Source: a virus | Lineage: Duplodnaviria > Caudoviricetes | Strand: one strand, 5' to 3' | Length of the DNA stretch: 28,743 bases | IMG/VR virus record: IMGVR_UViG_3300005805_000339 | Span: 1 to 28,743 of that record | Part shown: in pieces, positions 3,701 to 28,743 of the stretch | How positions within the stretch are numbered: position 1 is the first letter of the stretch | How the letters are laid out: every line of letters starts with the position of its first letter | Position numbers and translations under genes: made by a program | The notes under the pieces: model-generated | Database searches by the model: none | What the model was told of the DNA's origin: nothing | The model's input: the letters and a program-made list of their open reading frames with translations, nothing else

Positions 3701-4631
3701 CAGTTGGAGTGCTATATGCACCAGCTTTCAATATGAACTTGCCATTGCTATATGCAAGTTTGCCATAACAGCTTTTTAAAATATCTTCTATTACTTTTGC
3801 TGGTTTAGCATTAAGAGTAAACGTATAATTGCAAGTATATCTCCGACCAGTAAAACCACTTGGTATTGTATTGCACACATCTCTTGCTGTAGCAAAACTG
3901 CCTGTATCAATTTCATCATTACTTACTCCAAAATAATTCTTCAAATAGTGTAGTAATATAAGCGCTGGATTGTCATAATAATCTACATCACTGCCATCAA
4001 CGTCTTGTAATTTATGTCCAACAATTGTAGCGGATATATTTGGTATACCATTTGGATATACAGCAGGATCAGCAACAAGCTTTGTATATATGCTAGCAAT
4101 ACCATTCAGTTTATGATCGCTGGTCCATTCCGTAGCTGGAGTCATTACATAAGCTGTTTGGCTGCTTGCACCAATTTTATATGTCAAAGCTAATTTGTCA
4201 GATGGAAATGTTGGAGTTTGTCCACTGCCACTCGTCCAAGCCAATACGTCGTTGAAGAAAATGTTTTTAAACTCTGTTACTTCGTGTCCAGCAACCGCAA
4301 CAATTAAATGCAAAAATTCATTCTTTCCAGAGAAATTTGAACTGTTGGTACTAGCAAAAACTATTGGCCCAGATACACGATTCGTGCCATATAATACTCT
4401 CCTTGACGCTACCGTGTCACGCGTCATCGTAATTTTACCACTCGTTTCACTTTGTAAATTACCAAAAGATGGTATTTTCATTGTTGATTTTACTGCAGCA
4501 TATGTACCAGCAGCAACAATGGCATAAGAAGCAACATAAACAGCCGCATATTGTCCAGCTGTAACGCTGACTCCGTATGATGCTAAATAATATAGAATTT
4601 CAGTTGCGATATAAGTGGCTACTTGTGGCAT
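717..4631 (-). CDS. Tail tip attachment / central fibre protein (lambda J-like) with FN3-like domains and C-terminal GTS collagen-like tract
   Basis: Follows the tail-tip genes; RRVLYGTNRVSGPIVF, GIPNISATIVG, DNPALILLHYL, RRYTCN motifs; FN3-like YEFRARN and DNTAPQTPTN..LTW; IAGF..SEFTVQADKF segment; 1304 aa. Confidence 0.88.
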   Translation of the reverse strand: MPQVATYIATEILYYLASYGVSVTAGQYAAVYVASYAIVAAGTYAAVKSTMKIPSFGNLQSETSGKITMTRDTVASRRVLYGTNRVSGPIVFASTNSSNFSGKNEFLHLIVAVAGHEVTEFKNIFFNDVLAWTSGSGQTPTFPSDKLALTYKIGASSQTAYVMTPATEWTSDHKLNGIASIYTKLVADPAVYPNGIPNISATIVGHKLQDVDGSDVDYYDNPALILLHYLKNYFGVSNDEIDTGSFATARDVCNTIPSGFTGRRYTCNYTFTLNAKPAKVIEDILKSCYGKLAYSNGKFILKAGAYSTPTVSLNEDDLVGSIAVTTRSSLANAFNSVRGLYIDGNPYTVATSSNQPDDFYTSSFQAGDFVPITSSFYLAEDYGIENPIDLELPSVTDHTVARRLAKLALLDSRQDLTVSLTTKISGLQLIAGDNVYLSLARYGWENKVFEVNELVINPDLSINLVLKETAATIYDFPIDEDVDRDLSPNTNLPNPFVVQPPVGFSVTETTTLDRDGTVFPSATMLWSSSFSGSIADVALEFRNTASANYDSLGVVSRTDNTFTTLDVIAGNTYEFRARNLNYLGVYSTYVSASLKINGDNTAPQTPTNIVATGGTGSFTLTWVNPAVDTDYKFTKIFLNTSNNLGTAQLQGTISGTTFNKAIAVTSSLLQYAWLQNIDTSNNMSATSSAVSASIFPIEASGSAGPSGSAGNIQYNIYRRSATPPPTPTGNLTPAFWSISIPADNGNALWVSNGVILGSDGITLSGSWSTPQRLSGKVSWYQTTPPTGDTTGSIAIGDLWWDTDDNYKPYRFTITSNSGSWEPVDDGRINPISQSLVNFGGEYALTVTSSGTPRIAGFRIINQSGAESEFTVQADKFRIYSTANGTVTQSFTADANGVFMPQALIRELDAGKITAGTINATVLLTAAELQSPRITGSGFMVNSQVGMRYQDNNGVLTITGGETNGASNGAQIDLVGNSIGSPGIRGNLVLAAGDVGTSPSDGTIKFRTADLERAQIQRNGTLFVSQSIDVRGTTNRLGDNKFNESAIELGFEDRANRATYVDFISTTGVSDYDARVIRNSGTNGDFDIINTGTGVINVSVGGSTIGHFQTGTSGTGGSSGLGLFHGTASYALFAANGGGGGTSGTSGTSGTDGTSGTDGTSGTSGIDGTSGTSGTSGTNGTSGTNGTSGTDGTSGTDGTSGTDGTSGTSGVDGSGTSGTSGTSGVDGNGTSGTSGTSGVDGDPGTPGTSGTSGTSGTSGTSGTDADVTVANIFSALQTLGSYNPNVQQYLGHNGTSGPNLVWYDL
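843..1214 (-). repeat. (Gly-Thr-Ser/Asp/Asn)n collagen-like coding repeat in the J-like protein
   Basis: GTSGTSGTDGTSGTD...; Gly at every third residue with a few interruptions; degenerate 9-nt DNA units. Confidence 0.95.
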
Positions 4632-9684: not shown

Positions 9685-10119
9685 TTAGGTCAAAGATCCA
9701 GATACGAAGTTGACAGCTCCAGATAGACGAACTGAGCAATCTGCAACCAAGATACCTTGTGATGGATCGTCAGCGGTAATGTTGAATTCCAACAACGAAC
9801 CAGAGAATCTCCAAGAAGTGCCATCGCTGAATTTGATAGAGAAGTAATCGGTAGCAGTTCCTTGGTTAGCGGACTGAGAAACAATATACTGGTGTACGCT
9901 TGAAGCTGGATTATATTGTAGTCCGAATGTCAAAGTGCCTGGATCAGATAGAGCAGCTGCTTTGTATTCTTTGGCGGTGGATGCCATATTTGTAATATCG
10001 ATCTCTGGTTTAGAGAAGTTTGGCCCACCGATATTGGTTACGTTTGGTATTTCTGCAGATGACGTTGGAGTAACCTGCATCGACAAAATTGTTTTTGAAT
10101 AAATTGCTGTTGAAGCCAT
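9685..10119 (-). CDS. Major tail (tube) protein, lambda gpV-like
   Basis: I.NVTNIGGP..EIDIT..KEY..L.DPGTLTF.LQYNP..H..F.IKFSDG..W.F.G..V.LSG pattern; SD AAGGA; followed by a terminator. Confidence 0.9.
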   Translation of the reverse strand: MASTAIYSKTILSMQVTPTSSAEIPNVTNIGGPNFSKPEIDITNMASTAKEYKAAALSDPGTLTFGLQYNPASSVHQYIVSQSANQGTATDYFSIKFSDGTSWRFSGSLLEFNITADDPSQGILVADCSVRLSGAVNFVSGSLT

Positions 10120-10305: not shown

Positions 10306-10515
10306 ATGACCGAAAAAAATGATGCTAAGCTTCAGTATTTCGTGAAAGTAGATGTCAGCAGATTAACATTGTCAGAGAAGGGAACAATGTGTTTAGCCGT
10401 AGAGTGTTGTTGTCTCAAGATAAGAAAAGCAAAGAAATATACTTCATTCTATTTTGAGACGAAGGAATATGCTGAAACATTTACAGCATTCCTTAATATG
10501 CACGTAAAATCTTAG
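10306..10515 (+). CDS. Hypothetical protein (69 aa), convergent with 10493..11263
   Basis: Fills otherwise empty space; TATTTATA at 10272..10279 upstream; 23-nt 3' overlap with the opposing gene. Confidence 0.45.
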   Translation: MTEKNDAKLQYFVKVDVSRLTLSEKGTMCLAVECCCLKIRKAKKYTSFYFETKEYAETFTAFLNMHVKS

Positions 10516-11263
10516 TAGTTCCCCTGACTATTTTATAGCCGTTGATTTCTTGTTTGTTTGTCCGTATAGCATATCCCAATTTTTTATCATTGGTTTTGAG
10601 CACATTTGCAGTAACTCGTAGGCTCACAAAATCTATCTGCTTTTCATCTTTGACAAACTTCAGATAGTTTATCACATCATATATTTCTTTTTTTGGCTTA
10701 GCTCCTGAGAAATATTCGTCCCACGTTCTGCCATCTATAATATCACCTTTGTAGCACCAATCTCTTATTATACCACCAGTTTGTAGCATAGTGTCAAGTG
10801 TTGATACTTTCATGCCTATCTTTTTGCATATTACATTTTTTGATATATGTAATGGTACTTCTTCTTTGGTTTTTATATTGATGAGATGGTGACCATACAT
10901 CCGTATATGCCAATTTTGAGTTGCATCTATTTTTGGTGCCTCTACAAATCTTTTGATATTTTTGCGGAATATCATTAATCCATTGCCTCTAGGATCTCTG
11001 TGCAATGCCCTTACAAACGATTGTGCAAGTTTTTCTAACTCAGGTATGTTGAATCGTGTATATCCTAATGGCCTATTTGCTTGAATATCAACCCTGACGG
11101 TATCTGTATGGCTTAGGCACATTGTATATTCTTCAAACTTATTGTCCTTTATTATATGCCCCCGCATCCTACCAGCATCAATGGTCTTTATATAAGTAAA
11201 GCCATTTAGCTCAGTAAGCTTAACGTCTTCTATTGTTGGGATATAAATTTTTTGGTAGTCCAT
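10493..11263 (-). CDS. Hypothetical basic non-structural protein, possibly with NUMOD1/HTH-like DNA-binding elements
   Basis: 256 aa, Lys/Ile-rich, lacks Ser/Gly repeats; C-terminal F.SLR.TA..L..L..AI..INGYKI loosely resembles NUMOD1; own TATATATA element upstream. Confidence 0.6.
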   Translation of the reverse strand: MDYQKIYIPTIEDVKLTELNGFTYIKTIDAGRMRGHIIKDNKFEEYTMCLSHTDTVRVDIQANRPLGYTRFNIPELEKLAQSFVRALHRDPRGNGLMIFRKNIKRFVEAPKIDATQNWHIRMYGHHLINIKTKEEVPLHISKNVICKKIGMKVSTLDTMLQTGGIIRDWCYKGDIIDGRTWDEYFSGAKPKKEIYDVINYLKFVKDEKQIDFVSLRVTANVLKTNDKKLGYAIRTNKQEINGYKIVRGTTKILRAY

Positions 11264-11325: not shown

Positions 11326-14049
11326 TTACCAAGTACTCAGAGTGCTTCGCCTCCAAGTATTTGTTGCTGTGCAAATATACACTGATCCGCTATCCCATCT
11401 TATTTCACCAACTGTGCCAGACGAGCTGATTGAAGATGGAACTGATCCGCTTGGTAACAATAGTGATCCAGATATTGCTACACTACCAGTAAATCTGCAA
11501 GTATCAGATGTAGCATCACCAAACTTTGAGTCGCCTGTTATAAAAATAGAACTTGCTGTAACAGGTAGATCAAATGTAGTATGACCACTTGCGCTAACTC
11601 TTAGGCGAATATTTCCAGCACCGTCTGCAAGTATTATATTATTGCTCAATACAGTATTTAAGGCGAAAGGAAGATTTGCACCAATTATTGTATTGTTGCT
11701 TCCAGTTGATATGTTTCTAGCACAATCATATCCAAGTATTGTATTATTACTTCCACTTACCAATCCATATAATGACTGTTCACCAACAGCTACGTTTCCA
11801 CTTCCAGAAGTATTAGAAAATAATGCGTGATGCCCAAGTGCGGAGTTGTAGTTGCCAGCAGTATTATTTCTTAATGAACCAAGACCAACAGCGGTATTTT
11901 CTATGCCGGTTCTGTTTTCACCTAATGATTGTTGACCGACCGCTGTATTGTCTATGCCGGTTCTGTTTTCATACATTGAAAAATAACCTATAGCAGTGTT
12001 GCTATTTCCGGCAGTATTTTGAGTTAATGAAAAAACGCCTACGGCTGTATTTAGATTTCCACCAATATTATTACTTAATGAATGAGCTCCTATAGCAACA
12101 TTATCGCTACCAGAAATATTATTTTGTAATGCTATCCAACCAACCGCTGTATTATTATCACCAATAGTATTACCAGTCAGTGTGTAATTTCCAACCGCGG
12201 TATTATTATTACCAACAGTGTTGCCACTCAATGAATTATAGCCAACAGCAGTAGTATTGATGCCAGTAGTATTTACAGACAACGAAGAAAATCCTAATAC
12301 TGTATTACTACTATCATTACCTTTTCCTCTACCAACAGTAATAGAATTTATTGTAGCATCACTGCTGCCTGTAATTTGTCCGAATGTTACATTGTTTGAT
12401 GAAGTAAATGCATATCCGCCACCATTGGATAGTTGGAAGCTGCTGCTAATTGTTCCGCCTCCAGTTCCACTTGTGCCTGATGTACCATTAACTCCAGACG
12501 TTCCGCTTGTGCCGGATGTACCACTTGCGGCATTTAATGCATATGAAGCTGTAACGGCAAAACTTGCTGTACCTTGTAATGATCCAGTAAATGATGTAAA
12601 TACTGCTGTACTGCCAGATACCAATCCACGAAGTTGAGTAAGTGTTACAGCTGTAGTTCCTATCCAAACGCTGTTTGATCCACTTGCTATAACGCTATTT
12701 CCTATCGCAATTACATTTGATGTATTTGGTAAACTACCAGAAACTACTCCTGTATTTGATCCAATAAATACAGAATTGCCCATATTATTGAATGACTCAC
12801 TAAATGGAGAAACAGTTTGTCTTCCTGTTCCAGCAAAATATCCAATAAATACGCTTTGACTACCAGAGCCGATCATTCTACCAGCTTGAACACCAACTGC
12901 TGTATGTTGATTTGATACATTGTTTGTTAATAATGCGCTTCCACCTATAGCAATGTTGTTATTTGGTTGCCAAGCTGAAGCATTTGCATTTTGACCAATT
13001 ATAATACTATTTGAACCAGATGATATACTTGCTCCAGCATTTAATCCAATTACAATTTGATTAAATGAACTTGTATTCCTTAACAAAGATCCAGTTGGTG
13101 ATATTACAATATTAGCAATTGATGCAGTTATATTGTTTATCTTAGATGTAAGATCTGGTCCAATGTATATAGATGAGCTTTTTATTCCACTACTAACATT
13201 TACTGCGTCATTTATATACAGATCATCTACTGAATTTGCATAACTGGCTGTTCCAGCAAATGAGCTTGTTGATGATACGCTTGAAGATATATCATTCCAA
13301 TTTTGTGCTCCGCCTCCACCAGCATTTAATGCAAATGATGCGGTTATAGCATAACTTGCTGTAAGATTATTTAAAGCCCCACTAGCAGTAACAACATATC
13401 CACTTAAATCTTGAGTAATTCCCGATGTTCCAGATGTGCCATTGGTTCCTGATGTTCCATTGGTGCCACTTGTTCCATCTGTACCACTTGTTCCAGAGAT
13501 ACCAGATGTACCACTTGTTCCACTAGTGCCATCTGTTCCAGACGATCCTATTGATCCATTAACACCGCTTGTGCCAGATGTTCCACTGCTTCCGCTTGAA
13601 CCATCTGTTCCAGATATACCCGATGTTCCACTAGTGCCAGAACTACCATTAGTACCACTTGTTCCTGATGTTCCATCTATTCCACTAGTGCCGCTGGTGC
13701 CATCTGTACCAGAGGTTCCACTAAAACTTAGTGCATATGAAGCTGTGATAGCAAAAGATGAACTCAATGATTGTAAAGCATAGCTGGCTGTAGTTTCTGA
13801 ATTGCTTATCAATTTCCAGTTGTTTGGATTATCCCAATCAGCACTACTGCTTGTAGCACCATAATAACCATAATATTGTAGTGATGCTGTAGTAAATATA
13901 ATTGCTCCTACATCTCTTTTGTTTGCTGGTATTGAGCCTGTGTCAGATAATTGACCAACTGGATAACCGAGTCCCTTCAAACTCGTTTGAGCCATCAACG
14001 GGTTGTTGGGGTTATTATGTTGTAGGATGTCTGGAAAATTCAGTGCCAT
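11326..14049 (-). CDS. Long fibre/adhesin-like virion protein (GTS collagen-like tracts, TASYA motifs, beta-roll repeats)
   Basis: 907 aa; two GTS tracts; 17-aa NTAVG..SL..NT.G repeats; C-terminal P.S.SS.GT.GEIRWD..YIC.ATNTW.R domain typical of phage fibre ends. Confidence 0.8.
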   Translation of the reverse strand: MALNFPDILQHNNPNNPLMAQTSLKGLGYPVGQLSDTGSIPANKRDVGAIIFTTASLQYYGYYGATSSSADWDNPNNWKLISNSETTASYALQSLSSSFAITASYALSFSGTSGTDGTSGTSGIDGTSGTSGTNGSSGTSGTSGISGTDGSSGSSGTSGTSGVNGSIGSSGTDGTSGTSGTSGISGTSGTDGTSGTNGTSGTNGTSGTSGITQDLSGYVVTASGALNNLTASYAITASFALNAGGGGAQNWNDISSSVSSTSSFAGTASYANSVDDLYINDAVNVSSGIKSSSIYIGPDLTSKINNITASIANIVISPTGSLLRNTSSFNQIVIGLNAGASISSGSNSIIIGQNANASAWQPNNNIAIGGSALLTNNVSNQHTAVGVQAGRMIGSGSQSVFIGYFAGTGRQTVSPFSESFNNMGNSVFIGSNTGVVSGSLPNTSNVIAIGNSVIASGSNSVWIGTTAVTLTQLRGLVSGSTAVFTSFTGSLQGTASFAVTASYALNAASGTSGTSGTSGVNGTSGTSGTGGGTISSSFQLSNGGGYAFTSSNNVTFGQITGSSDATINSITVGRGKGNDSSNTVLGFSSLSVNTTGINTTAVGYNSLSGNTVGNNNTAVGNYTLTGNTIGDNNTAVGWIALQNNISGSDNVAIGAHSLSNNIGGNLNTAVGVFSLTQNTAGNSNTAIGYFSMYENRTGIDNTAVGQQSLGENRTGIENTAVGLGSLRNNTAGNYNSALGHHALFSNTSGSGNVAVGEQSLYGLVSGSNNTILGYDCARNISTGSNNTIIGANLPFALNTVLSNNIILADGAGNIRLRVSASGHTTFDLPVTASSIFITGDSKFGDATSDTCRFTGSVAISGSLLLPSGSVPSSISSSGTVGEIRWDSGSVYICTATNTWRRSTLSTW
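11690..12310 (-). repeat. About 12 tandem 17-aa NTAVGxxSLxxNTxGxx repeats (YadA-head-like beta-roll)
   Basis: NTAVGNYTLTGNTIGDN / NTAVGWIALQNNISGSD / NVAIGAHSLSNNIGGNL etc.; boundaries approximate. Confidence 0.85.
13420..13719 (-). repeat. GTS collagen-like coding repeat (a second short tract lies at ~12464..12522)
   Basis: About 33 consecutive Gly-X-Y triplets, X mostly T/S, Y mostly S/D/N. Confidence 0.95.
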
Positions 14050-14053
14050 ATGT

Positions 14054-15475
14054 TTATGATATTGCTAATGTTGTTCCACTGGCGAATGCTTTATCAGAAT
14101 TTGATTTATATACTCTGACCGAAACAGATGCACCATATGCATTGTTGATTGTATAATCACCAAGTTTAGTAAAGGCTGTTAATACTGGCAATGCACCGTT
14201 TTGTATGATAGTGCTCAAATCACCATAAGAAGCTGGATAAATTATATATGTAAAGTTTCCTAGTGTATCATTATTTCCATTGCAAGTAGCCGTCCAAGAA
14301 CGATCACTATCCAATATAGAATCTACAACATCATTATCTATTACAGTTTGGGCTGTGGCATTGGATATTATATCTGTAGAGCTTGCTGCCATATAATTTC
14401 TGAATCTGAATGACACAGATGTTGATGCACCAGTTATTGCTGTACCAATATCTGATCTTTTTCCGTTTACAGTAAATGTCACAGTGCCTCCAGATGTTGC
14501 ACGATTTATAGTATATGTATTACCAACCGACAATATATTAGAGCCGTTAGACAATCCAGCATTACCAAAATAATATGATACTGTACCAATATCTGCACCA
14601 GATGCTGTCCAGCTTGAGCTAATTGGTCCCACACCGTTACTATCAAGAGTAGCAGTAAACGAAGCTGTATTGACTTGGAAAGAGTTGTTTACATCTCTGG
14701 TTGCTGTAGAGATTGTGCTTCCTCCAAATCTCATAGATAGAGACGATAGTGTAGGTGGAGTATATGCAATCAGCATAGTTCTTAAAACTGACTCTATAGT
14801 GCTTCCAGAATGTATTGTTATACCAGAAATAATACCACCAACATTTTGGTTTGGTACAATATCAGCCTGTAAAGTAGTAGCAGATGATGTTATTGCATAT
14901 GATGCACTGGTAGCAAAACTTGAACTCTCTGAGTTGAATGCACCACTTATGGTCAAGCTGCCTGATATAAAAACATCACCATAAAAAGATATATTACTTC
15001 CAGTAATAGCCATCGCATTACTGCCTGTAAGAATATATTTGTCTTCCCATACAGCAACTTGACCAGCTTTACCAGCGCCTATAATTGCATTGTAATATAT
15101 TATGTCAGCACCATATACTACATCAAAGCTTACGTCCCTGCTGTATATTCCGGTTGAAATGTCGAAGTCATCAATTTCTGAGTTGATGACCATTTGTATT
15201 TCGCCATTGTTATATCCATTGAGAATAGAGATTAAGAAATCTCTCATATCCTCAGCTTCTTCTATTGTCTTAGATTTGCACGACCAAGTTGTTGTTTCTG
15301 TGCGTACACTTGGTCCGCTCATTGTCTGAGTACCAAGAATGCCTTCGCGAGTAAATACAATACAAGGTAAATCTACATTGCTGTTTTCAAACGTAGATTC
15401 ACTATAGACAGGCACCTGCAAATTGAGGTGAACCATCTGTCTTAAACTATAATAATACTCTTGTATTCCAGACAT
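14054..15475 (-). CDS. Tail-terminator-like domain (copy B) fused to a beta-rich extension
   Basis: N-terminal ~126 aa about 77% identical (hand alignment) to the N-terminus of 17251..19869; C-terminal Thr/Ser-rich beta region ending in YIIYPASYG.L..I..NAYG..RVYKSN. Confidence 0.72.
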   Translation of the reverse strand: MSGIQEYYYSLRQMVHLNLQVPVYSESTFENSNVDLPCIVFTREGILGTQTMSGPSVRTETTTWSCKSKTIEEAEDMRDFLISILNGYNNGEIQMVINSEIDDFDISTGIYSRDVSFDVVYGADIIYYNAIIGAGKAGQVAVWEDKYILTGSNAMAITGSNISFYGDVFISGSLTISGAFNSESSSFATSASYAITSSATTLQADIVPNQNVGGIISGITIHSGSTIESVLRTMLIAYTPPTLSSLSMRFGGSTISTATRDVNNSFQVNTASFTATLDSNGVGPISSSWTASGADIGTVSYYFGNAGLSNGSNILSVGNTYTINRATSGGTVTFTVNGKRSDIGTAITGASTSVSFRFRNYMAASSTDIISNATAQTVIDNDVVDSILDSDRSWTATCNGNNDTLGNFTYIIYPASYGDLSTIIQNGALPVLTAFTKLGDYTINNAYGASVSVRVYKSNSDKAFASGTTLAIS

Positions 15476-15493
15476 ATTTTATTGCTGATTATT

Positions 15494-15817
15494 TCATCCA
15501 GCTGAATATGGTGGATACATATTCCATTGTTGATTTTGTTCATTCCAAATGTAGAAATTTTCTACATCATCAGGATGTGGTACAGGAGCATTCCACGTTT
15601 TAGTTTCTGAGTTCCATATCCACGATGGATAAGGCTTTGGTTGGCGAAATCCATCTGTTTCATTGTATGTGTAGCCAATACCCACCAATGTTTCATCTGA
15701 ACATACCCATACACCGCCAAGCCTTTCCATAGCCCATTGTTCATTATCACAGACGATAACTTGTGTGACTATGCCATCAACAATTTTGCAACAATAATGT
15801 TCTTTTGTATTACTCAT
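15494..15817 (-). CDS. Small fibre-associated protein (Trp/Pro-rich)
   Basis: GIVTQVIV..GIGYTYN..DGF..PKPYPSW.WN..W.APVP.P..Y.WNE..W pattern, usually adjacent to glycine-rich fibre genes; ATGA overlap with the upstream gene. Confidence 0.7.
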   Translation of the reverse strand: MSNTKEHYCCKIVDGIVTQVIVCDNEQWAMERLGGVWVCSDETLVGIGYTYNETDGFRQPKPYPSWIWNSETKTWNAPVPHPDDVENFYIWNEQNQQWNMYPPYSAG

Positions 15818-16638
15818 ATTGGATATCTTATTATGACAATGCCTGAGCCACCCTTGCCAGGTAAGTTACCTGTATTACCGCCTTGGTAGTTGGACCCACC
15901 GCCACCACCACCTGTATTTGCTGCACCGTCTGTGGCATCTGATGTAGCAAAGGTAGTAGCACCGTTGCCGCCTCCACCCGCGCCACCAAGTCCACCTGAC
16001 CCTACTTTGTAAGCACCGCCACCGCCGCCACCATAAGTAGCAGAAGATCCTCCGATGGTTGAAGTTACACCGTCTCCACCATTTCCTCCAGTACCACCTA
16101 AATCACTCGTAGCGTTTCCACCATTTTCTCCAGCACCAGCACCACCACCACCAGCAAAATATGTATTATCATCAGTAATTCCAGTGCCACCGTTGTAAGT
16201 GACACCAGTACCACCAGCCTGAGGAGTGCCTGTTCCGTGTCCTCCACCACCGCCGCAACCGCCGTTTCCACCAACACCAATGTTGTCAGTCGCACCACCG
16301 CCGTGTCCTCCACCTTCAGATGTAATACTAGAGAACTGTGAGTCTGAACCTTTGGTTAAATAAGTTCCACCACCTCCAACTATTATACTATAAGTTGTTG
16401 CAGTTACAGTAAAACCAGTACCTGTTTTTACATCTCCACCGCCGCCACCACCAAACGAACCACCACCACCACCAGCAACAACTAGATAATCCACATTGCC
16501 ACCAGTAGTTACAACAAAGTCTCCTGAAGAAGTAAACGTATGAATACGATAGCCACCAGAATCAGTAACAGTGCCACCAGTAGCTACTACATTGGATACT
16601 GCTGCGAAAACGTATGGATTTATAAATATGACACTCAT
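15814..16638 (-). CDS. Glycine-rich-domain virion protein (likely fibre tip)
   Basis: ATGGTVT..GYRIHTFTSSG.F..VDYLVVAGGGGG...YGGGGGG..ANTGGGGGG..GGSGIVIIRY; N-terminal INPYVF peptide. Confidence 0.8.
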   Translation of the reverse strand: MSVIFINPYVFAAVSNVVATGGTVTDSGGYRIHTFTSSGDFVVTTGGNVDYLVVAGGGGGSFGGGGGGDVKTGTGFTVTATTYSIIVGGGGTYLTKGSDSQFSSITSEGGGHGGGATDNIGVGGNGGCGGGGGHGTGTPQAGGTGVTYNGGTGITDDNTYFAGGGGAGAGENGGNATSDLGGTGGNGGDGVTSTIGGSSATYGGGGGGAYKVGSGGLGGAGGGGNGATTFATSDATDGAANTGGGGGGSNYQGGNTGNLPGKGGSGIVIIRYPI

Positions 16639-16676
16639 AATATATTATTTGTTGGAATATGTTATAAGAGTGATAA

Positions 16677-17222
16677 TTACGAGTCTCTTCTTGTTTTTAG
16701 GTATACTTTTAATCCTTTACCGGCTGTAGAGCTCCCAACTTGGTCTATGTCAATAATTATTTCAGAATCATCAGCTAATGATGAAGTGGTAATAGTTGCT
16801 TGACTTGCTGCGGTTACAGATGTTTTTTCTAAAGCATCTATACTTAATTTTGTTCCAAGTAAACTACCACTAGCAGCACTACCACTTATATTGATATCTA
16901 CAATAAGTGTTGAACCGCTTGGTGCTGTATTCACGGAGGATCTTACAGCTAATAGTGTACCTGCGTATGGCATTCTGAAATATACTTTACCAGAGCCAGT
17001 AGTAAGATCAGTAGTTTCATCAGAAGCAGCAATTGTAAAATAATCTATACTACCAGTTGTTGCATCTGAGCTGTATGGCAATGAATTCCACGAGCCAGTT
17101 CCATCACCTATTTTAAATCTGCCTGTATTTAGTTCTGCCCCAAGCTCTCCTTGCATCAAGATTGGGTTTGTACTTGACCATTGTGTTGATGATCCTCTTC
17201 GAAGTTGAATTTGCGTTGCCAT
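16677..17222 (-). CDS. Mtd_N/hyaluronidase-N-like domain fused to a beta-sandwich; putative fibre adaptor
   Basis: QIQLRRG..W.S.NP.L..GE.G.E..TG.FKIGDG..WNSLPY, then SDETT.LTTG..FRMPYA..DIDQVGS..AGKGLKVYL. Confidence 0.78.
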   Translation of the reverse strand: MATQIQLRRGSSTQWSSTNPILMQGELGAELNTGRFKIGDGTGSWNSLPYSSDATTGSIDYFTIAASDETTDLTTGSGKVYFRMPYAGTLLAVRSSVNTAPSGSTLIVDINISGSAASGSLLGTKLSIDALEKTSVTAASQATITTSSLADDSEIIIDIDQVGSSTAGKGLKVYLKTRRDS

Positions 17223-17250
17223 AAATATTATTGTTTTATATTATTAAATA

Positions 17251-19869
17251 TTATACAGTTCCTCCATCAATTGATGTTGATCCTCCATAATTACTATCTG
17301 GTGCTCCACCGTCAAGATTTGGAGATGCGAAATTTAAAGCATATGAAGCGGTCACTGCAAAACTTGCTGTACCCTGTAGTGATCCAGTTATATTGATGTT
17401 ATTTTTGCTATTCTCCCACAAACCAGAAGAGCTGTATACAAGAAGATCGCCTGCAGATGGAGTAAGTGCTCTAACATCATGCAACTCTTCCAATTCATAT
17501 CCATTTTGTACAAGTGTGAAAATGCTGCCGTTGGCAACACCAACTCTGGTTACGATACCAGCATATACAAGATGAGTTGGTGCATATTGTTTGATGTTTG
17601 TCAATTGACCAGAAGATGTGGAAACATATAATATATCACCAGCGGTATATGTTGAGGTATTGATATTGCTTACTAAACCACGGGTTGTTACAAATCCGCT
17701 ACCACCAGATGCTATACTTTCTGCTACAATACCAAGTGTGCGTGCTGATGTAGCATCACCACTTGCATTTGCTCTTTTTACAGCCACACGATCCGTCTGT
17801 GATCCAGAAGCATATACAACTTCACCTTTGTTTAATGTGGTTGCTTCAGCATTATATACATAAGAAACTTCTTCTTGACCGATTGGAAGATTTACATTAC
17901 CACCACGCAATCCAATTTTTAAAGTTCCTAGATCACTATTCCAAGATAATTGACCAACTGCATCTGAAGTATTTTCTGTCTGAGCAAACTGAACTAATGA
18001 ACTGCTTGCATTACCAAGAAGATATGAAGCAGTAAATGGAGTTATACCGCTTGTACCAGATGTGCCGCTAGTCCCAGACGTACCATCTGTGCCAGATGTT
18101 CCATTGGTTCCACTTGTACCATTTGTACCTGATGTACCAGATGTACCAGATGTACCACTAGTTCCACTCGTTCCGTCTGTTCCAGATGTACCACTTCCAC
18201 CACCACCAGCATTAAGAGCATAACTTGCTGTTATAGCATATGACGAAGTTAATGTATCTAAAGCGTAACTTGCTGTTCCTAGTAATGATCCAGTTATAGA
18301 TAGCGCTTCTACAGATGAACCACTTATTACACCACGCAATAATGTTAATGTGGTTTGTAGATTGCCTATCACCGTGCTGTTATTTGCAGGAGACAATACA
18401 TTGTTACCAATTGCTATTGTATTATATCTACCAGAATCTCCAGGATTACTGCCTGAAACTATACCAGTTTTAAAACCAATATATATACTACTAGAGCTAT
18501 TTGCTGGATGAGATTGCCCAGTTCCGTTTCCAACTCCAGCATATGCTCCAATCATTATTGTTTCACCACCACCTGCTATATTTGCGCATCTATTTCCTAT
18601 AAAAATATTATTACTTGTGTTTCCAGAGCTGGCCATATTATTGCCAATGTATACACTACCAGTTGTGGCTGAAGAAATTGTTGTTCCTACACTATTACCT
18701 ATGACTATGTGATTATTTGCTGTGCTAATCGACGTAGCATTACCAGTTCCAATAATAATATTATTTGCACCAGTAGTTGTTCCACCAGTTGCATTTCTTG
18801 CTCCAATTATGGTGGAGTTTGTAGCTGTTGATCCAGATGTAAAATTCTCAAATCCTATGACTGTATTATTTACACCAGTCGTCATTCTATTAGCAGATCC
18901 ATTACCAACAACTGTATTTTGTCTTCCAGTTGTTATTGCGGTTCCAGATCCACTACCAATGAAAATATTAAATGACGCGGTTGGATTGTTGCCTTTATAA
19001 TTTTCGTGTAGTGTTCCGATGAATATAGATCTGCTTTCAACCAATACTTCAAAATTATCTATGTCTGTAGCATAGCTTGCTGTACCAGGGAAAGAACCTG
19101 TGGTTGTTACTGTTGGTCTTATATCAGCCCAGAACGACGATCCATTTGTGCCAGATGTACCACTTGATCCATCAGTTCCACTTGTGCCACTAGTTCCTGA
19201 TGTGCCACTTGCACCATCAGTTCCGCTCGTACCAGACGTGCCAGATGTACCACTTGCACCATCAGTACCACTTGTGCCATTTGTACCAGAAGTGCCATTT
19301 ACTCCACTTGTGCCACTCGTGCCAGATGTTGCACCTGTCATTGCATATGATGCTGTGATAGCATAACTGGCTGTACCACTTAATGTACCAGTGCTTCCAG
19401 ATATTATAAGTGCTGCACTGCTACTAATAATATATCTGTCTGTCCAGAAAGCTACTTGGTTTGCTGTACCACCACCGGTAATGACATTGATATACTCTAT
19501 ATCAGCTCCATAGTTTACTCTAAATCCTATGTCACGACTATAGATGCCTGTATTAACATCAAAACTATCAACCTCAGAGTTAAGCACCATCTGAATTTCA
19601 GCATTATAACCATTAAGCAGGGATATAATAAAATCCCTCATATCTTCTGCTTTTTGTATCGTCTTTGCTTTGGCGGCAAATGTTACTGTCTCATATCTGA
19701 CCGATGGGCCAGACATAGTTTGTGTACCAAGAGTGCCTTCACGGCTAAAAACCACGCAAGGTAAATCAACATTCTGATTAGCAAATGTGCTTTCCGAATA
19801 TACAGGCACCTGTAGATTCAAATGTATCAGCTGTCTTAGATTATAATAATATTCTTGTATTCCGGACAT
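17251..19869 (-). CDS. Tail-terminator-like domain (copy A, DUF3168-like) fused to a long GTS/beta-roll fibre
   Basis: Occupies the tail-terminator slot after the gp10-like gene; N-terminal VY..LP.VVF.R..SG..AKT..A..RD..LLNGY..D.FD..TGIY.R..F.V.Y pattern; then GTS tracts, NxxIG repeats, a KGEVVY..GIV..G..TRG domain and terminal DGG motifs. Confidence 0.78.
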   Translation of the reverse strand: MSGIQEYYYNLRQLIHLNLQVPVYSESTFANQNVDLPCVVFSREGTLGTQTMSGPSVRYETVTFAAKAKTIQKAEDMRDFIISLLNGYNAEIQMVLNSEVDSFDVNTGIYSRDIGFRVNYGADIEYINVITGGGTANQVAFWTDRYIISSSAALIISGSTGTLSGTASYAITASYAMTGATSGTSGTSGVNGTSGTNGTSGTDGASGTSGTSGTSGTDGASGTSGTSGTSGTDGSSGTSGTNGSSFWADIRPTVTTTGSFPGTASYATDIDNFEVLVESRSIFIGTLHENYKGNNPTASFNIFIGSGSGTAITTGRQNTVVGNGSANRMTTGVNNTVIGFENFTSGSTATNSTIIGARNATGGTTTGANNIIIGTGNATSISTANNHIVIGNSVGTTISSATTGSVYIGNNMASSGNTSNNIFIGNRCANIAGGGETIMIGAYAGVGNGTGQSHPANSSSSIYIGFKTGIVSGSNPGDSGRYNTIAIGNNVLSPANNSTVIGNLQTTLTLLRGVISGSSVEALSITGSLLGTASYALDTLTSSYAITASYALNAGGGGSGTSGTDGTSGTSGTSGTSGTSGTNGTSGTNGTSGTDGTSGTSGTSGTSGITPFTASYLLGNASSSLVQFAQTENTSDAVGQLSWNSDLGTLKIGLRGGNVNLPIGQEEVSYVYNAEATTLNKGEVVYASGSQTDRVAVKRANASGDATSARTLGIVAESIASGGSGFVTTRGLVSNINTSTYTAGDILYVSTSSGQLTNIKQYAPTHLVYAGIVTRVGVANGSIFTLVQNGYELEELHDVRALTPSAGDLLVYSSSGLWENSKNNINITGSLQGTASFAVTASYALNFASPNLDGGAPDSNYGGSTSIDGGTV
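18046..18192 (-). repeat. GTS collagen-like coding repeat
   Basis: Consecutive GTS/GTD/GTN triplets. Confidence 0.93.
19141..19335 (-). repeat. GTS collagen-like coding repeat
   Basis: Consecutive GTS/GTD/GTN/GAS triplets. Confidence 0.93.
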
Positions 19870-20324: not shown

Positions 20325-20639
20325 TTAATTTCTCCTTTCGCCAGTTGCTATTGTATATCCCTTGAAAGGTTGTTCGTCAATATAGACCAAATTATAATCA
20401 TTGCTGTCATATGTGATGATTGCTTTTTCAGTTATGTTTGAATTTTCTCGCAAAGTAAATGTATATGTTGCGGTGTTAACAACATATCCATTAGTATTGT
20501 TTTCTCCACCACCATCTTTTTTTATTCTGCACCATAAGCTCTGTGATGCATAATACATTATACTCTGACCATATCTATCAATAGATGAACTGGTCGGATA
20601 TTTTAAGACTATTCTATCTTCTAAAAGTCCTGGATTAAT
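20325..20639 (-). CDS. Head closure / head-tail adaptor (SPP1 gp16-like); start extended to ATT at 20639
   Basis: The frame upstream of the listed ATG (20558) reads INPGLLEDRIVLKYPTSSSIDRYGQ, the typical N-terminus of this family; in-frame TGA at 20643..20645; SD GAGGTGAT at 20642..20649. Confidence 0.8.
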   Translation of the reverse strand: MNPGLLEDRIVLKYPTSSSIDRYGQSIMYYASQSLWCRIKKDGGGENNTNGYVVNTATYTFTLRENSNITEKAIITYDSNDYNLVYIDEQPFKGYTIATGERRN

Positions 20640-20701: not shown

Positions 20702-21187
20702 ATGAAAACAAAAAACGTATTAAATAGATTCTTAAATAAAGTTGATAAAGATGGTCCAACCATGCCACATATGGATACCAAATGCTGGATTTGGTTAGCT
20801 GGTAAAAATAAAAAGGGATATGGAAGATTTAGTTTCAATCGTAAAAATAGATTAGCACATAGAGTATCTTGTATACTTCATAATATCGACATTCCAGAAA
20901 ATATGTGTGCCTGTCATAAATGTGATAATAGGAACTGTGTAAATCCAGAACATATTTTTATTGGAAGCATCATTGATAATACTCTTGATATGATTAAAAA
21001 AGGAAGACAGCGTGGTGGAGGTGTTCTTGGAGAATTGCACAAAGGAAGCAAACTTACTGAAAATGATGTAAGATATATTAGAAATAATAAAAACGCTTCG
21101 CTTCCAGAACTTGCTGAAAAGTTTAATGTTGGAACTGGAAATATTTGGTGTATTAGACATAATAAAACTTGGAAGCACGTAAAATAA
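20702..21187 (+). CDS. HNH homing endonuclease with C-terminal HTH, inserted antisense
   Basis: CWIW..GYGRF..AHRVS..CHKCDNRNCVNPEH..DN..DM.KKGR..SKLTE.DV..IR..LAEKF.V..KTWKHV; TATGTATA 4 nt before the ATG. Confidence 0.92.
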   Translation: MKTKNVLNRFLNKVDKDGPTMPHMDTKCWIWLAGKNKKGYGRFSFNRKNRLAHRVSCILHNIDIPENMCACHKCDNRNCVNPEHIFIGSIIDNTLDMIKKGRQRGGGVLGELHKGSKLTENDVRYIRNNKNASLPELAEKFNVGTGNIWCIRHNKTWKHVK

Positions 21188-23748: not shown

Positions 23749-25401
23749 TTATTCTGTTGGTTTAGCGTACTTAGGATGATCAGCGTTTAATAGATCATTA
23801 TCTCCTACATATGCCTCATTTTCTGGTGATCCAGTACGAGCCAATCTTAGAAATGCGTTAACTCTGGCCATTGCCCATGCTCCTCTGCTTACGCCTGGAC
23901 GATGACTTGTAGAATATGCTCCAGCTCCTCTGCGATATACTGCCTTGAGAGAACCAAGTCTGACCTTGCTCCAGTTTGGTTTATTTTCCTTGGTCATTTC
24001 AGCATTGTGCTCTTCTACTTTGTTTTCAAGAGCAGCTTCTATAGCATCTGTCATTTCTATATCTCCAGATTTGCCACTTGCTGATTCTGGTTCGTTTTTC
24101 TCACTACCTTCTATTCTATCTTTTGGTGGAGCTGGTGCATCAGCTCTGCTTTCAACAACTGGTGCAGGTGGTGGTGTGGCTGCTGGTGTGCTTGTTATTT
24201 TAGCAAAGTTTAGTGGACGTACATAATCATCTCCACCGCTTGTTGGTTCAATATACAATCCACTATCTTCTGCTTCATTAACTTGGTTAGCTGTCATTAC
24301 ACCGTGTTCAAGGGCGAATCTATAGTATTCGATTCTGGTCTTGATATCTCCACGTAGCAATCCAGATACATTGAAGTTTACATAAACGTCTTCTTCATCT
24401 TCAAGCAATTGCTTTTGTAGTTGTTGTTCAATATTAGTTATGATTGGCGTCAATGTATATTGAACAAATTCGATAGCTTGCTGCTCAACCGAAGCGTAAG
24501 TTGGACTGCTTTGTAGGCCCAACATATGTAATGGCACACGGAAAATGTCTGCGGCAATGCGTTGAGCACTGAATTGTTTCTGTTGTATATATTCAGCTTG
24601 CTGAGCTGTAATACCAACATTTGGAACTTCTACCTTGAGAGTATTTGGTAGAAATGCTGTCTTACCAGAATTGTTGCCTGTAAATCCTTGCTTCCATCCA
24701 GACTTGAGCTTTTGTAGCTCATCTTCTTTCATATTGCCTGGATAATATACCACACCGGCTGGTTTTGCCGCCTGCTTTGCGATTGCTGTGCCAGATGTTT
24801 CTAGTTCGCTATATCCGTCATATAGTGTGCGGAATGCGTCAATTAAGCTCATACCATAATAACCTTCGCGGCTATATCCTTTGATATGAATTAGCTGATC
24901 ATATGTAAATTCTTTATAAAGACTTGTGCCATCTGGCTGAGTCATATTCATCTTATAGTATGGCATGCCATCATCTCTGACATATACATCTACACTATAA
25001 GGATTGAGCGGATATAATTCTATAACAACGCCAGCGTTGTTTCTAATTTTCTGTATGTAGGCATTACCAAACATATCCAACTGAGTAATGCACCAATGCC
25101 AGAAATTATATGTGGTTTGAAATCCATTTGGACGTTTTGTAATAAGATCATAATATGGATGATCTCTGGCTGGTTCGTGGCCTTTTGGTAGTTTTCGATT
25201 TAGTTGTATTGGCAAACTAGCAATGGTGCTTGCACGTAGATTGATGCAACCATAAACAATACTCAGACGATCAACATAACGACCATAGCCAAATGCTGAA
25301 TTCCAATCCATAACATATGGACCGCCTATGGTTTCACTGCGAATTTCTTCAGCAGGTTGAGTATCTTTTTTTGATCTAAAAATATCTAGTATGGACGCCA
25401 T
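23749..25401 (-). CDS. HK97-family portal protein with ~130-aa C-terminal extra domain
   Basis: VYGCINLRASTIASLP, PNGFQT, GNAY, LYPLNP, FRVPLHMLG, EQQ..F..YTL.P, LLRGDIKTR, GVMTANQV..E..GGD; then a Pro-rich linker and an extra domain. Confidence 0.95.
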   Translation of the reverse strand: MASILDIFRSKKDTQPAEEIRSETIGGPYVMDWNSAFGYGRYVDRLSIVYGCINLRASTIASLPIQLNRKLPKGHEPARDHPYYDLITKRPNGFQTTYNFWHWCITQLDMFGNAYIQKIRNNAGVVIELYPLNPYSVDVYVRDDGMPYYKMNMTQPDGTSLYKEFTYDQLIHIKGYSREGYYGMSLIDAFRTLYDGYSELETSGTAIAKQAAKPAGVVYYPGNMKEDELQKLKSGWKQGFTGNNSGKTAFLPNTLKVEVPNVGITAQQAEYIQQKQFSAQRIAADIFRVPLHMLGLQSSPTYASVEQQAIEFVQYTLTPIITNIEQQLQKQLLEDEEDVYVNFNVSGLLRGDIKTRIEYYRFALEHGVMTANQVNEAEDSGLYIEPTSGGDDYVRPLNFAKITSTPAATPPPAPVVESRADAPAPPKDRIEGSEKNEPESASGKSGDIEMTDAIEAALENKVEEHNAEMTKENKPNWSKVRLGSLKAVYRRGAGAYSTSHRPGVSRGAWAMARVNAFLRLARTGSPENEAYVGDNDLLNADHPKYAKPTE

Positions 25402-28447: not shown

Positions 28448-28743
28448 ATGCCAGCTGTATCCGAAGCCCAACAATCATTTTTCAGACTAGTAAACGCATA
28501 CAAACAAGGAGCACTTAAAAAGTCTCAAGTATCTCCATCAGTTGTTGCTACCGCAAAAGAAATGAGCAGAAAAGAAATATCTGATTATCTAAAGCTCAAG
28601 AAACGCAATATGACTGAAGGATATGATGATGATACTTTGCCCGACATCGACCCATCCTATGAAGTATATGAAAGCATCACTATGCAAGATGTAATGAAGT
28701 TCAAGGCTTTGCTCGATATGCTAGATATAGCACCAAACGCTGA
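28448..28743 (+). CDS. Hypothetical protein, 3'-truncated by the window end (not in the ORF track)
   Basis: ATG at 28448 reads MPAVSEAQQSFFRLVNAYKQG...LLDMLDIAPNA with no stop before the end. Confidence 0.75.
   Translation, partial: MPAVSEAQQSFFRLVNAYKQGALKKSQVSPSVVATAKEMSRKEISDYLKLKKRNMTEGYDDDTLPDIDPSYEVYESITMQDVMKFKALLDMLDIAPNA
28645..28743. repeat. Right copy of the 99-bp inverted repeat
   Basis: Exact reverse complement of 1..99. Confidence 0.97.

Follow-up and report, generated by a model that had tools for sequence, protein, structure and literature searches.

Predicted tail-terminator domains fused to fibre extensions, a likely neck-fibre anchor in an uncultured freshwater phage

Gene content between the neck and the tail tube

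The window analysed here, the whole stretch of 28,743 nucleotides, belongs to an uncultured, freshwater, long-tailed phage and corresponds to about 35% of its genome according to CheckV (runs with a word share <0.2 were left out of the habitat inference). It encodes a lambda-like tube and a gpJ-like tip, and a sheath gene is absent from the window. An ORF check recovered all six cassette genes on the minus strand with the boundaries of the earlier note, and the Mtd_N, glycine-rich, Trp/Pro-rich and 907-aa fibre genes downstream of the two copies agree with its description (Table 1). Its placement of the cassette between the gp10-like and major tail genes also holds, but a conserved ORF of 256 aa had been missed. 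Gene order and module linkages in relatives bear out the division into two sub-cassettes, one headed by copy A and the other by copy B.

Table 1 Features of the cassette and its flanking genes in the window.
Feature	Position	Strand	Basis
gp10-like tail completion / Neck1 gene, upstream marker, 143 aa	19888..20319	-	PHROG 5, E 9.3e-12
Copy A gene, 872 aa	17251..19869	-	ORF; domain order from sequence and Pfam
Predicted terminator-fold domain of A, residues 1-120	19510..19869	-	AF2, Foldseek, PHROG 347 E 8e-4
Post-domain linker / fibre-start segment of A, residues ~121-160	19390..19509	-	loose motif
Gly-X-Y run 1 of A (mostly Gly-Thr-Ser), residues 183-245	19135..19323	-	Pfam Collagen
Gly-X-Y run 2 of A, residues 557-610	18040..18201	-	repeat analysis
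DGG peptide at the C-terminus of A, candidate docking site for Mtd_N protein	17254..17328	-	same ending before Mtd_N gene in L006
Mtd_N adaptor gene, 181 aa	16677..17222	-	PF18454 E 7.6e-12
Glycine-rich protein gene, 274 aa	15814..16638	-	PF21722 (Gly_rich_2) E 2.2e-17
Small Trp/Pro-rich protein gene, 107 aa	15494..15817	-	PHROG 7759 (function unknown), E 2.6e-12
Copy B gene, 473 aa	14054..15475	-	ORF; BLASTP to A
Terminator-like domain of B, residues 1-121	15113..15475	-	77% identity to A; profile E 8e-61; without own fold model
C-terminal module of B, residues 200-473, candidate socket	14057..14878	-	AF2 pLDDT 94.6
907-aa fibre gene	11326..14049	-	collagen repeats, Pfam Collagen
907-aa fibre N-terminal domain, residues 1-85, candidate plug	13795..14049	-	next-gene start after B-type module
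Conserved ORF, 256 aa, between 907-aa fibre and major tail genes	10493-11263		
Major tail (tube) protein gene, downstream marker	9685..10119	-	PF16460 E 1.7e-8; PHROG 158

Phage record searches found no cultured relative, and no prophage relative was found in GTDB genomes. The capsid protein had a best match of 33% in the phage records, and when 50,697 such records were searched by tblastn with the N-terminal domain of A and with P0046, neither query gave a match.

An assembly chimera or a decaying duplicate could in principle explain the A/B pair. The contig has inverted ends of 99 nt, which together with repeat-rich fibre genes could mislead assemblers, and contigs of a possible source run stop at 18139-18166, inside a Gly-X-Y run. 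However, in an independent study (run X3) a set of overlapping contigs covers 13660-17752 at 95-100% identity. They reach from the beginning of the 907-aa gene across B and the three small genes to A's 3' end. In addition, the related contig L011 likewise carries two long copies, a full B orthologue is known (P0004), and dN lies far below dS. This reading is already largely refuted, and its probability is close to negligible. We rejected the inverted ends as genome termini; they are likely an assembler effect because one arm interrupts an open ORF.

The shared N-terminal domain and its predicted fold

The identity between the two copies, estimated by hand at ~77%, was confirmed by alignment: 96 of 125 residues (77%) are identical over residues 1-125. 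The proposed domain length of ~125 aa fits that stretch but falls short of the full homology, which goes ~35 residues further, to residues 1-160 (BLASTP E 2e-81). The DNA repeat begins at both start codons. Nucleotide identity over the domain is 69%, with saturated synonymous sites (pS 0.78) and a dN of 0.22; comparison of dN with dS places both domains under purifying selection, and A and B retain the same conserved residues across the whole domain. Scanning all six frames of the window with a profile of 59 sequences revealed exactly two copies (E 1e-61, and 8e-61 for B) and no third one, the next best score being E 0.67.

Our analyses predict that residues 1-120 form a tail-terminator domain in A and likewise in B. 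The AF2 model of the A domain has moderate confidence (pLDDT 62.8, below 50 at residues 121-130) and shows two helices on an antiparallel sheet in the order H-E-E-E-H-E-E (H3-19, E38-44, E57-68, H71-86, E93-104, E109-120). Foldseek matched it to solved tail terminators, including lambda gpU (3FZB/8IYD) and T5 p142, with E 5.8e-6 to 1e-3 and TM 0.5-0.7. There were 45 PDB matches at E<=0.001; the 35 of them that were listed consist of entries for terminators, necks, collars or caps together with the two prophage hexamers 2GJV and 4ACV. The best BFVD matches are tail completion/DUF3168 proteins, and the best ESM Atlas clusters carry PF11367 on 10-75% of their members (cosine 0.93, 188-192 shared features). 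PHROG 347 (tail terminator) was matched by 29 of 59 family members at E<=0.05 (best E 3.4e-9), with zero PHROG matches for B alone. The terminator fold proposed for residues 1-125 from the letters of the sequence is thus corroborated by the likeness of the A model to gpU and p142 in these comparisons.

Neither A nor B was matched by a Pfam terminator family; nothing in the window exceeds the curated cut-off of PF11367 (Tail_completion_gp17, DUF3168; 24.5 bits), and the two are not filed under that family. A PDB profile search with domain A returned nothing. A WD40-repeat identity for this domain was discarded as chance, since it came from summed weak PDB sequence matches with each stretch <8 bits. 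As the earlier note had stated, the window (~35% of the genome) has no terminator candidate besides A and B: own-genome searches with PF11367 and PHROG 347 were empty and the family profile found no other. The placement after Neck1 and before the tube gene recurs in relatives whose contigs extend as far as the latter, such as L001, L016 and L025. Stand-alone paralogues of 118-123 aa occur in relatives, so the domain is an autonomous unit.

Beyond the domain, a loose linker motif was found in 24 of 27 long proteins examined, down to ~30% domain identity, and the reading frame is unbroken across the domain/extension junction in every complete long copy. Both findings weigh against an extension that is not displayed at the neck, where cleavage, a frameshift or an early stop would yield a short terminator, or else a canonical one would lie elsewhere, with the fibre part at the head or tail tip. 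This would be in line with the 65% of the genome outside the window, with displaced terminator genes such as those of ceduoviruses, which lie outside the late cluster (PMC12474359), and with the shortened version of a long-type gene in one cluster, P0007 (197 aa, on a contig of 28 kb). A and B have no other baseplate or head anchors, and we consider this explanation highly unlikely.

Copies in related phages and the fibre modules

In 26 related contigs the same slot occurs in three states: a short stand-alone copy plus a long one, the commonest two-gene state; one long copy alone; and two long copies (L011). Where the next gene was readable in these 26 contigs, a short copy was never found without a long one, and in 11 of the 26 Neck1 is followed directly by the long copy with no short copy. 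Two contigs, L008 and L012, are readable through to the 256-aa marker with one copy (genome completeness 10% and 33%; the 29-kb L012 record contains a single match). That these two have the fused copy only speaks for this domain as the terminator in use. Long proteins in relatives reach 1505 residues, and the short copies form their own clade with 41-52% identity to A. Judged from sequence, the terminator-fibre fusion is a clade trait of the related phages. The search for other phages with extended or duplicated terminators proposed earlier yielded these 26 related contigs. The original description as a duplicated terminator is modified by them: across the clade the fusion takes three forms, of which doubling is one, and the two copies here seem to stem from different lineages.

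Treating A and B as sisters gave an AU p of 0.041, and the L011 pair as sisters 0.05. A and B are probably not sisters and come from different lineages, which suggests cassette exchange over fresh duplication; recent in-place duplication is disfavoured only marginally by these values. The scan found no loci for the distant group (P0037/39/41/43/44).

Copy number also bears on whether each paralogue forms its own hexamer, stacked at the top of the tail, giving two fibre tiers here and, in relatives with a short and a long copy, one bare tier and one with fibres. The terminator fold is akin to that of the tube, and terminators are able to polymerise (PMC11784142), crAss001 has paralogous stacked rings (PMC10172136), and the separate clade of short copies agrees with such tiers. 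However, near relatives carry one or two copies on an otherwise common neck and capsid module, so a second tier would need to be optional, and proteins at 77% identity would be expected to mix. We regard stacked rings as unlikely. Slightly less likely again is that one copy caps the tube while the other domain is a peripheral clip on the neck or tube exterior, like the Ig-like N-domains of XM1 collar spikes. A clip would remove the six-versus-three mismatch, and XM1 gp40 trimers dock three N-domains non-equivalently on the neck (PMC10457771). Against it, the domain-wide conservation shared by A and B gives no sign of lost ring interfaces, and the fused copy is the sole candidate in long-only relatives.

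After the terminator domain and conserved linker, A continues with a Gly-X-Y run, an Asn/Gly repeat block, a second Gly-X-Y run, a globular domain and the DGG-containing C-terminus. PF01391 scored above cut-off in A and in the 907-aa protein. The Pro-poor Gly-Thr-Ser runs are not necessarily triple helices. The Mtd_N gene product carries PF18454 at its N-terminus (45.4 bits, cut-off 26.3), a domain that matches the N-terminus of the phage hyaluronidases 6x3m and 2yvv in the PDB; a literature search on Mtd_N found nothing relevant. Among L001-L028 and the window, Mtd_N occurs only in the window and L006, and its association with the DGG ending is based on these two loci. The glycine-rich protein lacks a PDB sequence match and is a candidate tip adhesin; the 107-aa protein had no Pfam match.

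Copy B has the terminator domain, the linker and a mobile C-terminal module composed of a small helical knot, an Ig/FN3-like sandwich (238-358) and a terminal beta domain. It has no Gly-X-Y run and resembles an adaptor serving the 907-aa protein rather than a fibre in its own right. The module resembles Ig/FN3-type folds with Z 7-8.7, perhaps just a common fold with no function implied. It has 191 homologues and is C-terminal in 119 of 119 inspected, whose N-terminal slots hold many different short domains, including Mtd_N, and a terminator in one. In other phages, at 34 of 34 readable loci, the gene after a B-type module opens with the domain that forms the N-terminus of the 907-aa fibre. From this linkage the two likely form a socket-and-plug joint. 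The fibre itself consists of the plug domain, Gly-X-Y runs (111-212, 510-533), 17-residue repeats (582-786) and a C-terminal cap. In one run X3 contig, B up to codon 171 runs on in frame into the 907-aa gene at codon 97, with both joint halves missing; this contig (325 nt) was found at 85% likeness and absent at 90%, and its fibre side is of low complexity. A complex prediction of three B 354-473 chains with three chains of residues 1-82 of the 907-aa protein scored 0.00 twice, without controls, and counts neither for nor against the joint. The nearest named Atlas cluster of the module is crAss_THB (cosine 0.83), a lead only; the fold matches cover the Ig-like domain and barely the terminal domain.

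The tail-cap ring as a candidate fibre anchor

We interpret these results as terminator domains fused to fibre extensions, and so as a tail-cap ring that likely also anchors neck fibres, probably with A and B in one ring (probability about 0.7). A fused copy is very probably the working terminator of this phage, because its neck-to-tail interval has no short copy. The chain would quite likely leave the ring past residue 120 through the conserved linker as an outward fibre, most likely a trimer; the collagen-type runs and the Peptidase_S74 chaperone in which the distant member P0037 ends are hints of this state. Six ring subunits and trimeric fibres present a geometric mismatch: a six-membered ring would take <=2 fully docked trimeric fibres, and more if only some domains per trimer dock. 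Lengthening of each fibre by non-covalent binding of the next gene's product is likely too, if a little less so. The DGG end of A would bind the Mtd_N protein, itself carrying the glycine-rich and Trp/Pro proteins, while the partner of B's terminal domain would be the N-terminal domain of the 907-aa protein. The odds are about even that A and B co-assemble into a common ring, something that short and long copies may also do in relatives. The tube of SPP1 is built of mixed short and long subunits. The likely role would be auxiliary, reversible attachment to surface polymers, apart from the gpJ-like tip.

The domain is like siphophage terminators (lambda gpU, SPP1 gp17, T5 p142, DUF3168/PF11367, PHROG 347) in predicted fold, domain size and gene position (PMC11784142). 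Whereas those are 117-240 residues long among the solved matches listed and 99-224 in the best 50 BFVD matches, here the domain heads proteins of 473 and 872 residues and occurs twice. T5 counts against such an anchoring ring, as its C-terminus is part of the subunit interface and a C-terminal tag leads to aberrant polymers (PMC11784142). The enlarged terminators of contractile systems, T4 gp15 and PVC16, likewise add C-terminal domains (PMC11784142), but these hold the sheath or repeat the terminator fold, whereas the extensions here are fibre repeats.

Fibres at the head-tail junction are described for T4 fibritin, XM1 gp40, the Bas63 collar-whisker, A-1(L) gp82-gp81-gp80 and the lactococcal neck passage structure, often as trimers from several neighbouring genes (PMC10457771, PMC12609058, PMC10966104, PMC9863714). 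All of these are separate proteins, mostly of myophages, with their own anchor domain on the connector, whereas here the anchor would be the core terminator domain; in Foldseek the N-terminal domain of A matched terminators and not Ig-like collar domains. The crAss001 phage likewise has paralogous ring-forming genes, with THA2-THB hubs that accept a trimeric fibre by its N-terminus (PMC10172136), but its podovirus rings are dodecameric and of another fold, and each hub is a protein apart. In siphophages, decorated tube and Dit proteins also join a core hexameric tail protein to an adhesion extension (PMC9863714), though the ring protein is another one and the additions are small Ig or carbohydrate-binding domains, not long multi-gene fibres. 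Neck fibres and enlarged terminators are thus already known, and a terminator-fibre fusion was not found in the literature searched.

In the usual view the terminator is a small ring with a strictly structural role. Were it to carry fibre extensions of 40-150 kDa, one and the same core assembly protein would also serve as a platform for host contact, and the hexamer/trimer mismatch would be solved in a way so far unseen in any structure. Fibre genes between neck and tube genes of uncultured phages could then be neck appendages where annotation would say tail fibres. More tentatively, and with the balance somewhat against it, the terminator of this clade of freshwater siphoviruses might be a combinatorial display ring, in which bare, fibre-bearing and socket-bearing paralogues share one hexamer and exchangeable plug-and-socket pairs hang different adhesins, so that neck fibres vary by subunit mix within a virion or between virions of one burst. 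Since nature supplies a series of arrangements (a short with a long copy, a long copy only, two long copies, and a variant lacking the joint), ring composition is open to direct tests. The tight pairing of B module and fibre N-terminus (34/34), together with the C-terminal peptide/adaptor pairs, suggests that aquatic phages draw on a general, modular set of fibre parts.

A terminator-type domain heads two fibre-type genes

The earlier note had claimed that genes A (872 aa) and B (473 aa) begin with a duplicated domain, and the two are indeed 77% identical over residues 1-125 and alignable to about residue 160. Saturated synonymous sites together with a dN of 0.22 mark both domains as old and conserved. 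A six-frame scan found just these two copies, which supports the statement that the window holds no further terminator candidate. Contigs from X3, a run from an independent study, tile part of the cassette with 30-nt overlaps; they span the start of the 907-aa fibre gene, the whole of B, the three small genes that follow A, and the 3' end of A. The A 5' domain is not among the pieces listed.

Residues 1-125 of A alone match PHROG 347 (tail terminator, E = 8e-4). B alone has no PHROG match, and neither protein reaches a terminator family in Pfam. In the family alignment, 29 of 59 members match PHROG 347 (best E = 3.4e-9), and A 1-130 adjoins gp17/DUF3168 clusters by language-model features (cosine 0.93). 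The structure prediction proposed earlier upheld the terminator fold: the AlphaFold2 model of the A domain (pLDDT 62.8) had 45 PDB matches at E ≤ 0.001, and the 35 listed rows are terminator, neck, collar or cap entries, including lambda gpU, T5 p142 and T4 gp15. A BFVD search with this model agreed. By predicted structure, the A/B domain belongs to the terminator structural superfamily, and by its cut-off not to PF11367. The A/B feature is real and the terminator call holds at the level of the model.

Phylogenetic analyses grouped B with protein clusters P0004, P0006 and P0016 (support 99/90 in one tree and 97/91 in a second) and placed A apart from it, in a position that had no starred support. 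A tree constrained to join A with B was rejected only marginally (AU test on 27 rows, distant rows left out; p = 0.041, and 0.05 for the pair in related locus L011). Judged from these sequences, acquisition of a second cassette by recombination would fit better than a fresh duplication, a preference that is not firm. P0006 has a minimal form, with a B-type domain, linker and DGG ending in 186 aa; it may be cut because its source contig is only 845 nt.

Copy states among related phages

Three scans gave 28 loci on 26 distinct contigs (L001 = L010, L002 = L021), phages with extended or duplicated predicted terminators such as the earlier note had suggested seeking. A short, stand-alone copy of 118-123 aa directly precedes a long-type (fused) copy on 11 of the 26 (of which only 89 aa are present in L018). 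On another 11, a long copy comes straight after Neck1, the gp10-like tail completion gene, with no short copy. Two of these, L008 and L012, are readable through to the conserved 256-aa ORF and hold a single copy (in L008 the reading frame of the long gene is broken close to the 3' end). A second long copy is present in L011, and the remaining eight contigs stop before any further copy could be seen. Four contigs (L015, L026, L027 and L028) are cut at the decisive place. The long copy was not seen to be missing on any of the related contigs. Whole-record searches, all on fragments, found one copy each in L004, L006, L008 and L012 and two in L011.

Copy states are interleaved on the capsid, adaptor and Neck1 tree (15 contigs). 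The domain tree puts the short copies in a single clade, which also contains one long protein on a long branch. Most simply read, a short plus a long copy was the old state, and the short copy has repeatedly been lost. In 24 of 27 long proteins the stretch that follows the domain is conserved, suggesting that terminator and extension were fused once, long ago. Searching 1.84 billion representatives with the domain gave 18 matches. Nine are more distantly related proteins, 266-585 aa long, that carry it N-terminally. Three matches were dropped as WD40-like repeat proteins.

Extensions, downstream partners and a candidate neck appendage

The A extension contains two Gly-X-Y runs and a block of Asn/Gly repeats, and it finishes with a DGG ending. 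Asn/Gly repeats of 17 residues form trimeric beta-rolls. B has no Gly-X-Y run; the model of its residues 200-473 is confident (pLDDT 94.6) and shows a small knot, followed by an Ig/FN3-like sandwich and then a terminal beta domain. Homologues of this module number 191, and in all 119 inspected (118 of 120 listed plus P0004, self match left out) it stands at the C-terminus. The N-terminal domains ahead of it are of many kinds, a terminator in a single case. The B module was examined at 39 viral loci, five of them cut and many of the rest near-duplicates; at 34 of 34 readable loci the next gene, ≤15 nt away, opens with the domain that begins the 907-aa fibre. No terminator domain lies within the 8 kb examined at any of the loci. 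In one 325-nt X3 contig the frame runs on from B codon 171, across 56 other nucleotides, into the 907-aa gene at codon 97, so that the two parts of the putative joint (B module as socket, fibre N-terminus as plug) are both missing. This contig was not seen at the 90% setting. In P0016, a similar B-type domain runs straight into Gly-Thr-Ser repeats.

Among the window and the related loci, only two (the window and L006) have either the DGG ending of A or an Mtd_N gene, and both have the two together. The kind of peptide at the C-terminus of the long copy tracks the downstream adaptor gene (L008, L011, L012, L014, L016 and L001): a D-[IV]-W-x-Y-x-G ending pairs with a 121-126-aa gene in five lineages, and another ending pairs with a 108-aa gene in L001/L002. 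None of these adaptor genes directly follows a copy with a cap-type end (L004, and the second of the two in L011). Glycine-rich proteins of the type found after A act as tip adhesins.

The terminator hexamer of solved phages caps the tube and binds the head connector (PMC11784142). The A/B domain would do the same, with each chain leaving it through the conserved linker and then trimerising, and downstream products would plug onto the free fibre ends. One fibre would run from A to the Mtd_N protein and on to the glycine-rich and Trp/Pro proteins, the other from B to the 907-aa fibre. With 77% of residues identical, the two domains would most probably assemble together in one putative ring; the rivals are stacked rings, or one of the two domains acting as a peripheral clip outside the ring. 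Against a fusion ring stand the mismatch between a hexameric ring and trimeric fibres and the disturbed assembly caused by a C-terminal tag on the T5 terminator (PMC11784142).

Known neck fibres are separate proteins, whereas the putative fibres of A and B are, by predicted fold, fused to the terminator domain; in known enlarged terminators the added parts have a role with the sheath or are repeats of the terminator fold, whereas those of A and B are fibre-type extensions. We found no description of a terminator fused to a fibre in the mostly non-subscription literature, available in part (including PMC11784142, PMC10172136, PMC10457771, PMC10966104, PMC12609058, PMC9863714 and PMC12474359), whose supplements and annotation tables could mention such fusions; terminator, collagen, fused and phage together returned nothing. 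What is new here is a candidate neck appendage in which the predicted terminator itself carries the fibre-type part, encoded in a modular cassette of variable content.

Genomic setting

The window, which spans an entire virus record of 28,743 nt, carries a minus-strand HK97-type head module and a lambda-like tail module, in the order terminase, portal, protease, capsid, adaptor, head closure, Neck1, cassette, tube protein, chaperones, tape measure, Dit, hub and gpJ-like fibre. No cultured relative was found in searches of phage records and no prophage relative in GTDB genomes; lake and freshwater metagenomes are the best holders of the sequence. IMG/VR classes the window ends as inverted terminal repeats. 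An assembler effect is more likely, because CheckV completeness is only 35%.

Features of the window and related contigs
Feature	Position	Strand	Observation
Inverted ends	1-99, 28645-28743		perfect 99-nt repeat; one arm cuts an open ORF (28448 onward)
gpJ-like central fibre	717-4631	-	ends in a long Gly-Thr-Ser run resembling cassette runs
256-aa ORF	10493-11263	-	separates cassette and tube gene; versions in relatives are 26-34% identical; matches neither Pfam nor PHROG; end mark of the variable slot
Cassette (six genes)	11326-19869		
X3 tiling	13660-17752		
X3 325-nt contig	13760-14964		
B	14054-15475		
A	17251-19869		
Head closure	20325-20639	-	apparent ATT start behind a GAGGTG site gives 104 aa, as in relatives, versus a 77-aa ATG ORF
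HNH gene	20702-21187	opposite	inserted between head-closure and adaptor genes
Portal	23749-24200	-	extended at the C-terminus by a part with DUF5824 (E = 4e-8); L003 and L018 share it, most relatives lack it
897-aa protein	L001 10514-13207, L002 8548-11241		many short F-x-x-C-x-x-L repeats; cassette tip position

AGGA-type sites precede the Neck1, tube and capsid genes, whereas upstream of the six cassette genes the sequence is A-rich and lacks a purine-rich Shine-Dalgarno-like site. These different upstream signals may mark a different gene pool.
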